Shown here: positions 216 through 5,819 of the stretch, in pieces
Layout of the letters: the number at the start of each line of letters is the position of its first letter
Position numbering within the stretch: the stretch's first letter is position 1
Assembly (NCBI GenBank): GCA_964552005.1
Contig: CAZKFC010000002.1
Coordinates: 35,188-99,187 of the forward strand
Length of the DNA: 64,000 nt
Direction: 5' to 3'
Source: an uncultured Methanosarcinales archaeon
Lineage (GTDB): Archaea; Nanobdellota; Nanobdellia; Woesearchaeales; GW2011-AR15
Position numbers and translations under genes: made by a program
The notes under the pieces: generated by a model
Told to the model about the DNA's origin: nothing
Database searches by the model: none
What the model saw: only the letters and a program-made list of their open reading frames with translations

Positions 216-2171
216 TTGAAAGATATTGTCTTTAATCTATTATTAAAAGACCCATTAGGAGCGTATGTTGAATTAAAGCGTATAAAAAGAAGGCAAAAAA
301 TTTTTTTAGAGAAATCAGATGACGAGCACGCGGTCTACTGTTTAACTAATTACATAGCAGTCCTGGATTATTTAATTGAACACCTGGAAAACACAAAAAT
401 AGTAATAATTGCAAAGCCTTATCTGGCAGGGTATGAAATTGGAGACAGGCTTGTTTATAGACGTATCTTTAACCCGACAATAAAACCAGATTTTATGTAT
501 GCAAAATTAATGGCAACTTACCCAAAAGATGGTGAAGAGATTGATAGTTATACTATTGGCCAGGACACCGAGATTACTATTTTTAAATTAGCTAACAGCG
601 TAAAAACACTATATCATATGATGCCTCCTGAATTTAAATTAAGCGAGGAAAAATATGAGTTGTTGGACACTGCCCGGAACATAATGGCAGAGCATAAGCC
701 AAAACGAAGCGATTTTGTTGACCCTGGAAGAATGCGTGAAGTATTTTATAATGTGGGAAAAGACCTTATTGAAGAGCTGGCAGGTTACCGCCATATTTCT
801 TTACGAGAAAAAGAACTAGAGCAACTAACTCATATTTTGGTGAGGTATACTGTTGGCTTTGGTCTAATTGAAGTTTTGTTGCAGGATGAAAATATCCAAG
901 ACATCTCCATTAATAGCCCAATGGGGCGCACACCAATGTTTATTGTACATAGCACGCACGAGGATTGTTTTACCAACATAATACCAACGCCGCAGGAAGC
1001 TGAAAGTTGGGCTGCTAAGCTAAGAATGATTTCAGGCAGACCATTAGATGAAGCTAACCCTATTCTAGACACAGAATTATTATTGCCCGGAGCATCAACA
1101 AGGGTCTCTGCAATAAATCCTCCTTTAAATCCTACTGGATTAGCATTTTCATTTAGAAGACATAGAGATAAACCATGGACACTGCCTTTGTTCATCAAAA
1201 ATAAGATGATAAACCCGCTAGCAGCAGGATTATTAAGTTTTTTGATAGATGGTACAAGGACATTAATGGTCTGTGGAACTAGAAGCAGCGGTAAAACAAG
1301 TTTTCTCTCTTCCATAATGGTAGAGATTATGAAAAGATACAGGCTAATTACGATTGAAGATACTTTAGAATTGCCCGTACCACAATTACGAGATTTGGGT
1401 TTTAATATACAATCCATGAAAGTAAGCAGTGCGCTAACCAAGACAGGTTCTGAGGTGGACGCTTCAACTGGTATAAGGGCTACTTTAAGATTGGGTGATT
1501 CTTCCCTTATAATAGGAGAAGTGCGTAGCAAAGAGGCTGTTGCATTGTATGAGGCAATGAGGGTTGGAGCCGCTGCGAATGTTGTTGCAGGAACATTACA
1601 CGCAGATTCGCCGTATGGGTTATATGATAGAGTTGTTAATGATATTGGCGTTCCTAGAACAAGCTTTAAGGCAACTGATATTATTTTAGTTGCTGCCCCT
1701 ATTAAATCTGCAGACGGCTTACATAAATATAGGCGTATAATACAAATAACAGAAGTACAGAAAACATGGGAAAAAGATCCTTTATTAGAAAAAGGTTTTC
1801 TTGACTTGATGAAATACGATGCTAAAAAAGACGAGTTAATACCCACACCAGACCTGGTAAATGGCGAGTCTGAAATTTTGAAAACAATTGCAGGAAAGAT
1901 AGCTGATTATGCTGGCAACTGGGACGCTGTCTGGCAGGACATATTATTAAGAGCAAAATACAGAGAAGATATTGTTAATAAAGCTGCTGAACTAGAAGAT
2001 GATGATATGTTGGAAGCTCCTTTTGTTATTTTATGTAATGACATGTTCCATATTATTAGTGAAAGAGTTAAAGAAAAGACAGGTAAATTAAATCATGAAA
2101 AAATTTACAGGGAATGGAAGATATGGTTTAATCAGGAATTAAGAAAAAGAAAAATTAAAAAACAAGAGTAA
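216..2171 (+). CDS. Secretion-system ATPase of the VirB11/GspE/FlaI/TadA superfamily. The reading frame stays open back to base 1 and the track start is a TTG, so the gene is probably 5'-truncated by the window edge.
   Basis: Walker A 'GTRSSGKTS', Asp-box 'ITIEDTLELPVP' and downstream His-box-like region typical of archaeal FlaI/TadA ATPases. No in-frame ATG upstream within the window. Confidence 0.72.
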   Translation: MKDIVFNLLLKDPLGAYVELKRIKRRQKIFLEKSDDEHAVYCLTNYIAVLDYLIEHLENTKIVIIAKPYLAGYEIGDRLVYRRIFNPTIKPDFMYAKLMATYPKDGEEIDSYTIGQDTEITIFKLANSVKTLYHMMPPEFKLSEEKYELLDTARNIMAEHKPKRSDFVDPGRMREVFYNVGKDLIEELAGYRHISLREKELEQLTHILVRYTVGFGLIEVLLQDENIQDISINSPMGRTPMFIVHSTHEDCFTNIIPTPQEAESWAAKLRMISGRPLDEANPILDTELLLPGASTRVSAINPPLNPTGLAFSFRRHRDKPWTLPLFIKNKMINPLAAGLLSFLIDGTRTLMVCGTRSSGKTSFLSSIMVEIMKRYRLITIEDTLELPVPQLRDLGFNIQSMKVSSALTKTGSEVDASTGIRATLRLGDSSLIIGEVRSKEAVALYEAMRVGAAANVVAGTLHADSPYGLYDRVVNDIGVPRTSFKATDIILVAAPIKSADGLHKYRRIIQITEVQKTWEKDPLLEKGFLDLMKYDAKKDELIPTPDLVNGESEILKTIAGKIADYAGNWDAVWQDILLRAKYREDIVNKAAELEDDDMLEAPFVILCNDMFHIISERVKEKTGKLNHEKIYREWKIWFNQELRKRKIKKQE

Positions 2172-5100: not shown

Positions 5101-5819
5101 TCAACAGCAGCTCCTGACACATGGTTATCCTCATATCTTATTGTCAATAAAGCATCTGGAGAGAATTCAATACTTTCAGGAGTAAATTCATATTTTACTT
5201 TTCCTAAAACAGAAGGATCATCTGGACATTCTTCTTTAACATAAACTTGAATCTCATCTAAACCTGGTGTTACTTTTGTACCTTTTTTAATACTTAACTC
5301 TAAATCCAAATCTGGACTTACCAACACCTGGTCTTTAACTGTTTTTGAATTTGTGTCAAGTTCTAAAGAAAGTGATTTTGTTCGGGGTAATGATAAACTA
5401 GATTTTTCAAATTTTACAACTGTATCATCTCTAGAAAATTGCATGGGATACACAATATCAACAATAATTTCTTCTTCTGTTATGCGGACATCAATTTTAT
5501 CTGGCCTGCTTTTGGCAGTAACCTCATAGCCTTTCCTCCTATATTTATCAAAACCAATACATGTTGACATCCCTCTATTGATTGTTCCCTTAATATCATT
5601 TTCTTCACACAAACCATAATCATCAATAGACTTTAATAGCAAAGTATATAAACAATCATCAAACTGGCTTCTCAAAGAACTTTGAGTGACAGTTGTTGGT
5701 GTCTCTCGGGTAAGCTGTTGTTTTTTAACAACTGTGCTCCTGTATGCAAAAAAACTTATCATAAGTATTAATAAAATACCAATTATGACATATATTGTAA
5801 CTTGAGATTTAGATTTCAT
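2172..5819 (-). CDS. Giant (1215 aa) secreted or membrane-anchored Cys-rich protein with multiple thrombospondin type-3-like Ca-binding repeats and a possible TIM-barrel glycosidase-like middle domain.
   Basis: N-terminal hydrophobic anchor '[16 protein letters not shown]'. Repeated DxDxDGxxDxxDxC motifs (e.g. '[14 protein letters not shown]', '[14 protein letters not shown]', '[34 protein letters not shown]'). 'IEIGEEPN' resembles the GH5 NEP motif (weak). Confidence 0.7.
   Translation of the reverse strand: [1215 protein letters not shown]

Follow-up and report, generated by a model that had tools for sequence, protein, structure and literature searches.

What does a secretion-type ATPase have to do with the giant surface protein whose gene lies directly beside it? 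The question is raised by one end of a 64,000-nucleotide stretch of contig CAZKFC010000002.1 (the window), where the gene of a GspE/FlaI/CpaF-type ATPase on the plus strand converges on that of a cysteine-rich protein of 1215 residues (the giant) on the minus strand. DPANN archaea live attached to other cells, and the molecules with which they hold or breach their hosts are mostly unknown. The explanation that we favour, with moderate confidence in it as a whole, is that two unrelated units lie here tail to tail: a type-IV-filament-like module, conserved across the Woesearchaeota and consisting of the ATPase, two coiled-coil genes and usually a downstream platform gene, and a tethered, probably self-cleaving glycosidase.

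The window is AT-rich (28-37% G+C) and encodes archaeal proteins such as a pelota/eRF1-like protein and Sec61β; all close relatives are labelled Woesearchaeota, Nanoarchaeota or DPANN. The material from which domain folds, motifs, their conservation and synteny were read consists of an extended contig from ENA (L001), which reaches beyond the window start, a set of 88 loci surrounding ATPase relatives (with two duplicate pairs, L004 being identical to L003 and L012 to L002), an alignment of 13 sequences of the giant family (clusters with labels such as P0004, P0008 and P0013), and two AlphaFold models of parts of the giant computed with those 13 sequences as input (mean predicted local distance difference test, pLDDT, 74.5 and 79.3). 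The cut-offs used are 24.9 bits for Pfam T2SSE, 25 bits for Pfam TSP_3 and 550 bits for the NCBIfam FlaI equivalog NF058587.

The initial annotation of this locus described a protein of 1215 residues directly beside the ATPase on the opposite strand, anchored at its N-terminus, rich in cysteines and carrying at least eight thrombospondin type 3 (TSP3)-like repeats, and all of this holds. The giant contains 56 cysteines (4.6%, against a median of 0.69% in the 36 other window proteins), and its family is very small, with 13 clusters among 5.8 billion proteins and nine strong relatives among 1.84 billion representatives. Pfam and NCBIfam searches with the whole protein and with sub-regions find TSP3 repeats only, and a sequence search of the PDB likewise returns TSP3 proteins and nothing outside the TSP3 block. 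Most of its architecture is read from the predicted structure, and its parts are as follows.

2172..5819, minus strand: complete gene of the 1215-residue surface protein (open reading frame; 13 homologous clusters)
5846..5853, minus strand: TTTATATA box about 30 nucleotides before the ATG, read directly from the sequence; TATA-like and likely the giant's own promoter
5724..5819, minus strand: N-terminal anchor, residues 1-32, MKSKSQ and a 20-residue hydrophobic helix (helix 5-32 in the model)
5367..5684, minus strand: small α+β domain, residues 46-151, confidently modelled, with conserved C56, C71 and C87
4974..5342, minus strand: ZU5/GAIN (MAIN)-like β-sandwich, residues 160-282, from the predicted structure
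4995..5003, minus strand: H273-L274-S275 in the turn before the last β-strand, predicted self-cleavage site (L274/S275)
3639..4973, minus strand: strands β1-β6 of a (β/α)8 barrel, residues 283-727, from the predicted structure
4530..4550, minus strand: E-I-G-E-E-P-N, residues 424-430, an 'NEP'-type motif at the end of β4 (model strand 152-156, equal to residues 421-425)
3765..3779, minus strand: D-H-S-Y-P, residues 681-685, an H-x-Y-type motif on β6 (model strand 410-414)
2946..3638, minus strand: eight TSP3 repeats, residues 728-958 (Pfam TSP_3; COMP 3FBY, 1.2e-21)
2634..2945, minus strand: barrel strands β7-β8, residues 959-1062 (model strands 698-703 and 741-746)
2898..2921, minus strand: I-M-I-T-E-T-A-W with E971, within model strand β7 of the barrel
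2175..2633, minus strand: C-terminal Cys-rich β domain, residues 1063-1215 (β-rich, pLDDT 80-90)

The middle region had been tentatively linked to glycoside hydrolase (GH) family 5 through a segment GEEPN and proposed for structure prediction. The segment is present at residues 426-430, and the region is predicted to fold as a TIM barrel of the clan GH-A type in which both catalytic glutamate positions are filled. Its top structural matches all belong to clan GH-A (PslG 21.4, a GH39 xylosidase 21.3, GH164 21.1 and many GH5 members at about 19-20), the leading folds being GH39-like. Membership in GH5 itself fails, since neither Pfam Cellulase (PF00150) nor any other GH model matches the whole giant or residues 270-620 at E-values up to 1; the likeness at the level of the clan holds. 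E424, E428, P429 and N430 are invariant in the 13 sequences, and position 427 is E, D or N, so that the residue before E428 is E or D in 10 of the 13 and the canonical N-E-P is found in three members. Among the β6 residues, D681 never varies, and H682 and P685 hardly do. E428 is the putative acid/base, and E971 on β7, which stands in the family pattern T-E-x-A-W, the putative nucleophile.

The barrel shares its motif order with PslG of P. aeruginosa (PDB 4ZN2), with GH39 β-xylosidases and with clan GH-A in general (GH5, GH1, GH53, GH164), namely a Glu after β4 in x-E-P, H-x-Y on β6 and a Glu on β7. Like the giant, PslG is tethered by an N-terminal membrane helix, and its substrate is an exopolysaccharide. 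Differences are considerable: identity is only 8-14%, there is no Pfam or CAZy-type match, the residue before the acid/base is mostly E or D, and two large insertions interrupt the fold, a Cys-rich helical one between β5 and β6 (at about residues 480-675) and a TSP3 array of 230 residues between α6 and β7. An exhaustive phmmer search of the N-terminal part of the barrel against the 1.84 billion representatives yields the nine family members and four weak matches without a GH domain, and no CAZy family can be assigned. Three proteins of 678-856 residues (P0197-P0199) match barrel residues of about 311-481 weakly (E 1e-5 to 7e-4) and have no GH annotation in that region; P0198 and P0199 carry CarboxypepD_reg domains, and P0197 has a weak DUF11 match. 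They may be part of a wider, undescribed GH-A-like family.

The TSP3 block scores 60.3 bits against Pfam TSP_3 (PF02412; E 1.5e-16) and contains eight DxDxDG-type motifs within residues 733-944; it is 25% Asp and holds 18 cysteines. It presumably binds calcium, and in the models it appears to be nested inside the barrel, between helix α6 and strand β7. This nesting and the self-cleavage module described below are additional to the initial annotation. The motif DxDxDGxxDxxD with paired cysteines is common to the type 3 repeats of thrombospondin and COMP and to bacterial TSP3 proteins (for example MtsC), and the giant is matched at 1e-21; in the giant the repeats appear to sit within an enzyme fold and do not form a free-standing wire. 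The array is almost absent in P0008. The C-terminal domain is also variable, being swapped or extended in P0013 (SGNH/GDSL), P0004 (DUF2341) and P0012, and the SGNH esterase module added in P0013 fits glycan degradation. For the small domain at residues 46-151 no clear fold match was obtained.

Residues 160-282 find their best structural matches in the self-cleaving ZU5/GAIN group. The tripeptide H273-L274-S275 sits between model strands 266-273 and 276-281, and its H and L are invariant in 13 of 13 sequences; P0008 alone has T in place of S. HX(S/T) is where GAIN domains and the recently described MAIN (microbial GAIN-like) domains cleave themselves, the two pieces remaining together, and glycoside hydrolases are the most frequent fusion partners of MAIN domains (10.64898/2026.05.12.724683). 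Bacterial surface glycohydrolases had earlier been noted to contain domains of the ZU5 superfamily (PMC3482391). MAIN proteins such as B. subtilis YfkN (Brogan & Rudner 2026, preprint), which belong to the ZU5/GPS/Nup98 superfamily (Zhang et al. 2012), have in common with the giant the β-sandwich and an H-hydrophobic-S/T sequence in the turn before the last strand. Both are large cell-anchored surface proteins in which a glycoside hydrolase and adhesion-type repeats are fused. The giant differs in that anchor and sandwich are N-terminal and the enzyme C-terminal, in its membrane-helix anchor in place of a sortase or SLH module, in its DPANN host, in the absence of a sequence-level match, and in that its cleavage is predicted.

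From this architecture we infer for the giant self-cleavage, enzymatic activity, a class of substrate and shedding, in the following manner. The protein would be exported and held in the membrane through its N-terminal helix. Next, through an N-to-O acyl shift in which H273 acts as base, the sandwich would sever the L274-S275 bond of its own polypeptide. The C-terminal head, made up of the GH-A barrel, a TSP3 array loaded with calcium and the Cys-rich β domain and stiffened by disulfides and calcium, would from then on be bound only through β-strand 275-281, so that it could be shed or detached by pulling. E428 serving as acid/base and E971 as nucleophile, the barrel would bind and probably hydrolyse a β-linked glycan, for which a host envelope, an S-layer glycan and an exopolysaccharide are candidates.

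Several points weigh against this view of the giant. Both folds rest on AlphaFold models from 13 sequences only, and no sequence model backs either the GH or the ZU5/GPS assignment: Pfam ZU5/GPS gives no match at E-values up to 1 with 12 members, nor does the PDB profile search, and the Foldseek E-values for the ZU5 match are marginal (3e-3). Weak sequence conservation of MAIN domains is reported by their own authors (10.64898/2026.05.12.724683). Described MAIN proteins have the opposite order to the giant's anchor-MAIN-enzyme, and with this order the last strand would leave with the released piece. Finally, of the 13 sequences 10 retain E971, and P0006, P0007 and P0008 have K, Q or a gap there, from which it follows that catalysis is not essential for the giant family. 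This last point also favours a reading in which the giant is a non-catalytic adhesin, with a lectin-like pseudo-glycosidase barrel, the TSP3 repeats as a calcium-dependent host-attachment module and the ZU5-like domain as a spacer. The replacement of the Asn of the canonical NEP by E or D in most members agrees with it, and TSP3 repeats are typical of adhesive matrix proteins. We nevertheless regard it as unlikely: the giant itself has both catalytic glutamates, the E428-P429-N430 segment is invariant and H682 nearly so, one member has gained an esterase, and the invariance of H-L-S/T would be hard to explain in a mere spacer.

A different view of the giant concerns its N-terminus and involves a second filament locus in the window. 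This locus, of the 'System 1' type, is complete (11404-14767, plus strand) and consists of a T2SSE ATPase of 520 residues (11404-12966) and two T2SSF platform genes (13107-14767). Beside it, on the minus strand at 15110-21710, are genes of three proteins with pilin-like N-termini (332 residues; 1483 residues with VWA; 390 residues with LamG), and a canonical pilin of 135 residues (MKRGQ/VSVEF) is encoded at 22140-22547, also on the minus strand. The earlier statement that no platform or pilin genes are visible is hence correct for positions 216-5819 but not for the window.

Across the giant family the N-termini read K-[S/A]-Q-[I/V]-T-x-[Y/F]-x-I-I-G, where Q6 and G14 hardly ever vary. The pilin-like N-termini elsewhere in the window also end in Q or G ahead of the helix. 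The giant's N-terminus is possibly a class III (prepilin-type) signal, and otherwise a signal anchor. In the former case the giant could be a 'functionalised pilin', a bindosome-like substrate from which a prepilin peptidase would remove the residues up to K-S, leaving Q at +1 as in EppA-type substrates. Its helix would enter a filament or pseudopilus, built either by the System-1-type machinery (11404-14767) or by the orphan ATPase together with the System 1 platform, and its enzyme would be displayed away from the cell. The conserved Q6 followed by a 20-residue hydrophobic helix and the similar N-termini of proteins beside the System 1 locus are in keeping with this proposal, as are the reports that DPANN possess System 1 with its two platform genes and that many non-pilin proteins bear class III signals (10.64898/2026.04.22.720090). 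The proposal, builder included, is about as doubtful as the adhesin. Residue -1 of the putative cleavage site is S in 7 of 12 sequences, instead of G or A; Pfam Class_IIIsignal has no match on the giant; and there is no prepilin peptidase (Peptidase_A24) among the approximately 45 window open reading frames scanned. In the model the helix continues into a disordered linker, with no pilin head. A tethered, probably self-cleaving glycosidase remains the reading of the giant that we prefer.

The other half of the question is the ATPase, whose features in the window are the following.

1..2171, plus strand: 3' 94% of the ATPase gene, residues 44-765 of 765 (frame open from base 3; Pfam T2SSE; PDB matches)
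1275..1298, plus strand: Walker A, GTRSSGKT, residues 468-475; G468, T469, R470, S471, G473 and K474 are invariant in 22 family members
1515..1526, plus strand: Walker B-type GEVR, residues 548-551, invariant in alignment A3 and aligned to A. fulgidus GspE (afGspE)
1560..1607, plus strand: altered His box RVGAAANVVAGTLHAD, residues 563-578, from alignments to the window paralogue (HTGHS---VYSTFHA) and to afGspE

The ATPase had been assigned a start at position 216. The TTG codon there is an artefact, since the frame is already open from base 3; the gene begins before the window and encodes 765 residues (L001 13649-15946), its first 43 codons preceding the window start. The assignment as a second, divergent secretion-type ATPase is borne out by the T2SSE score (PF00437, 51.3 bits) and by the 27% identity to the System 1 ATPase. 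Its best solved relatives in the PDB are A. fulgidus GspE (2OAP, 1.4e-30), CpaF (1e-23) and FlaI (3.5e-20); against the FlaI equivalog NF058587 it scores 137.9 bits, below the cut-off, and it is not FlaI. Judged by sequence, it is a divergent GspE/FlaI/CpaF-family enzyme and a genuine T2SSE member.

The Asp box IEDTLEL (residues 494-500) is invariant in the family. In the His box the canonical TGH is replaced by GAAAN plus a three-residue insertion, so that the first His is gone and the second (TLHA) is kept, and an invariant signature, RVGAAANVVAGT-HAD, stands in place of the canonical TGH throughout the family. The enzyme is probably active despite the replaced His, because Walker A, Asp box and Walker B are intact. 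It has in common with afGspE, FlaI and CpaF, and with archaeal type IV filament systems (Makarova 2016; Sivabalasarma & Albers 2026), the T2SSE core, Walker A, Asp box, Walker B and variable extensions, and it differs in the loss of the first His and in about 240 N-terminal and 100 C-terminal extra residues, for which no family match is found. Relatives with 60-83% identity occur in at least 585 GTDB species genomes (Woesearchaeota/Nanoarchaeota), and more than 120 clusters have 62-100% identity across the full length.

The initial annotation supposed that the ATPase may serve a different export or assembly system, the other parts of which lie upstream, and named as refuting outcomes a middle domain of the giant without a TIM barrel and a conventional archaellum operon upstream. 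Neither of these outcomes came about. The first supposition is supported: on the extended contig no genes for archaellin, FlaF/G/H or FlaJ are found upstream of the ATPase, and there is no archaellum operon. The second is correct in part. Upstream in L001 are two coiled-coil genes, a pilin-like gene, UppS and DnaG; in relatives the platform lies downstream, and here it is missing from the vicinity. The coiled-coil genes (cc135, 135 residues, and cc215, 215 residues; L001 16028-17125) encode cytoplasmic proteins, lie outside the window and are divergent from the ATPase. Among the 71 loci with enough flanking sequence, cc135 is divergent and within 1.5 kb of the ATPase in 55, and cc215 is within 3 kb in 54. 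Profile searches against Pfam and the PDB yield generic coiled-coil noise and a weak DUF7626 / FlaC_arch signal only, the weak DUF7626 match being that of cc215, which begins with a small N-terminal helical domain. Kinship of the coiled-coil proteins to archaellum FlaC/D/E was considered and rejected as unsupported. Past them, about 1.2 kb upstream of the ATPase start and likewise outside the window, is the pilin-like gene pil154 (MKKRAQ/LAVETLLIYG), which is clade-specific and reaches an E-value of only 0.14 with Pfam Class_IIIsignal.

In most loci the downstream neighbour of the ATPase is a membrane protein of 710-760 residues, encoded on the same strand and annotated as hypothetical. This platform-like gene is found in 57 loci (for example L008 11349-13589), directly 3' of the ATPase in 54 of them, and its product has about eight transmembrane segments and two helical cytoplasmic blocks. 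In 8 of 36 members a sub-threshold match to Pfam T2SSF extends over almost the full model; by hhalign both halves are co-linear with the two T2SSF genes of the window, weakly (probability 40% and 4%); and homologues with 35% identity are annotated with PF00482 or named 'type II secretion system F family protein' by NCBI. Homology to T2SSF is accepted only on the hhalign result combined with the Pfam matches and these annotations, and we consider the protein of about 730 residues to be a cryptic, very divergent T2SSF-type platform. The operon with a two-repeat platform, and cytoplasmic coiled-coil accessories as in subclade 4F (arCOG07564), are shared with archaeal filament systems; the module is unlike them in that its platform is so divergent as to be annotated hypothetical, and is absent near the ATPase in the clade of the present genome.

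A local HMM (hidden Markov model) built from the platform-like family (alignment A7) has no match at E<1 in the window and L001, nor in the loci of its clade, in which the ATPases share at least 76% identity with the present one. A word-based, non-exhaustive search of the clade's long contigs, one of them 1.16 Mb, also found no homologue. The absence is only moderately supported: the local search covered about 72 kb, and the word-based one missed known distant members. In nearer outgroups the platform is displaced, being inverted in L016 and on the same contig but non-adjacent in L090 (ATPase 72% identical), and an Aenigmatarchaeota homologue (L089) does not adjoin any ATPase. A second clade without a platform near the ATPase (L007, L024, L026 and others) has downstream a protein of about 540 residues on the opposite strand, which in L007 carries GAF and guanylate-cyclase domains.

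It remains to ask whether the two genes belong together, as the initial annotation implied. They are convergent, with abutting stop codons (TAA of the ATPase at 2169-2171, TTA of the giant at 2172-2174). The giant adjoins the ATPase on the opposite strand in L001, L002, L003, L005, L009, L011, L013 and L017, which form one sub-clade. It is absent in L006, L010 and L014, where the ATPases are 76-81% identical and directly followed by a DUF7343 gene. This gene is a conserved backbone neighbour:

5867..6556, minus strand: signal peptide, CarboxypepD_reg-like domain, one transmembrane segment and a cytoplasmic winged helix, DUF7343 (Pfam); may be a trans-membrane regulator

Where ATPases are 76-83% identical, the giants are only 38-54% identical. 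Given the convergent orientation, the separate TTTATATA box, the lack of a giant in sister loci and the tiny size of its family, the giant is probably not part of the ATPase system, the conserved partners of which are other genes. Its gene would be a lineage-specific insertion into the backbone of the ATPase locus, in a clade whose ATPase module would have no platform gene nearby and would have gained a pilin-like gene upstream.

That the ATPase drives a dedicated export or assembly system with the adjacent giant as its cargo is distinctly improbable. It would explain why the genes are neighbours in eight related genomes, and the giant's conserved K-[S/A]-Q and hydrophobic N-terminus resembles a class III signal. 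Two further facts speak against keeping the units apart: in this clade the ATPase is without an adjacent platform and is flanked by prepilin-like N-termini on both sides (pil154 and the giant), and another large secreted protein occupies the place downstream of the ATPase in L015, where a different protein of 950 residues lies between it and a giant 3.7 kb away, so that large secreted proteins fill the clade's platform position. The L015 arrangement also suggests that genes of large surface proteins tend to accumulate at this site. Against the cargo stand the convergence and separate TATA-like box, the closely related ATPases without a giant, and the disparity between an ATPase family of at least 585 species and a giant family of about 13 clusters; furthermore, the synteny also spans UppS and DnaG, and so reflects shared descent. 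It is very improbable that the clade's platform-less ATPase has been re-purposed, with the pilin-like gene, to mount a prepilin-anchored giant on a short filament as a force-detachable, pilus-displayed glycosidase that grips or opens the host envelope.

The giant is a concrete candidate for DPANN-host interaction, in which a tether predicted to cleave itself, an array of calcium-binding repeats and a barrel of the glycosidase type are combined in an unusual arrangement. The kinds of component are already known; the novelty is in the reversed domain order, the nested TSP3 array and the DPANN host. If self-cleavage is true, the MAIN principle would extend to an N-terminally anchored, reversed architecture in archaea. 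Filament specialists may care more about the ATPase module, with its altered His box, two coiled-coil partners and hypothetical-annotated platform in hundreds of Woesearchaeota, and with at least one clade that retains the ATPase without a platform nearby.

Other secreted or membrane proteins are encoded elsewhere in the window. Beyond the DUF7343 gene, 6759-8495 (plus strand) encodes a secreted protein of 578 residues that has no family match; a long coiled coil is followed by a C-terminus that is acidic and rich in cysteine (2.4% Cys). At 41288-43072 (minus strand) a protein of 594 residues has an N-terminus, MVGCMQGISRRSFLKLSS, that resembles a twin-arginine signal; it has no Pfam match and adjoins a polysaccharide deacetylase and a protein with a Lon_C domain only. 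The region 54063-60176 (minus strand) encodes three lipoprotein-like proteins, of which one matches DUF11 weakly, a membrane protein of 671 residues and a protein of 412 residues with MKNKKAQ and a hydrophobic N-terminus, all otherwise without family matches. A gene cluster resembling it in sizes and order is found at L005 61-5027, next to the same pelota-like gene.

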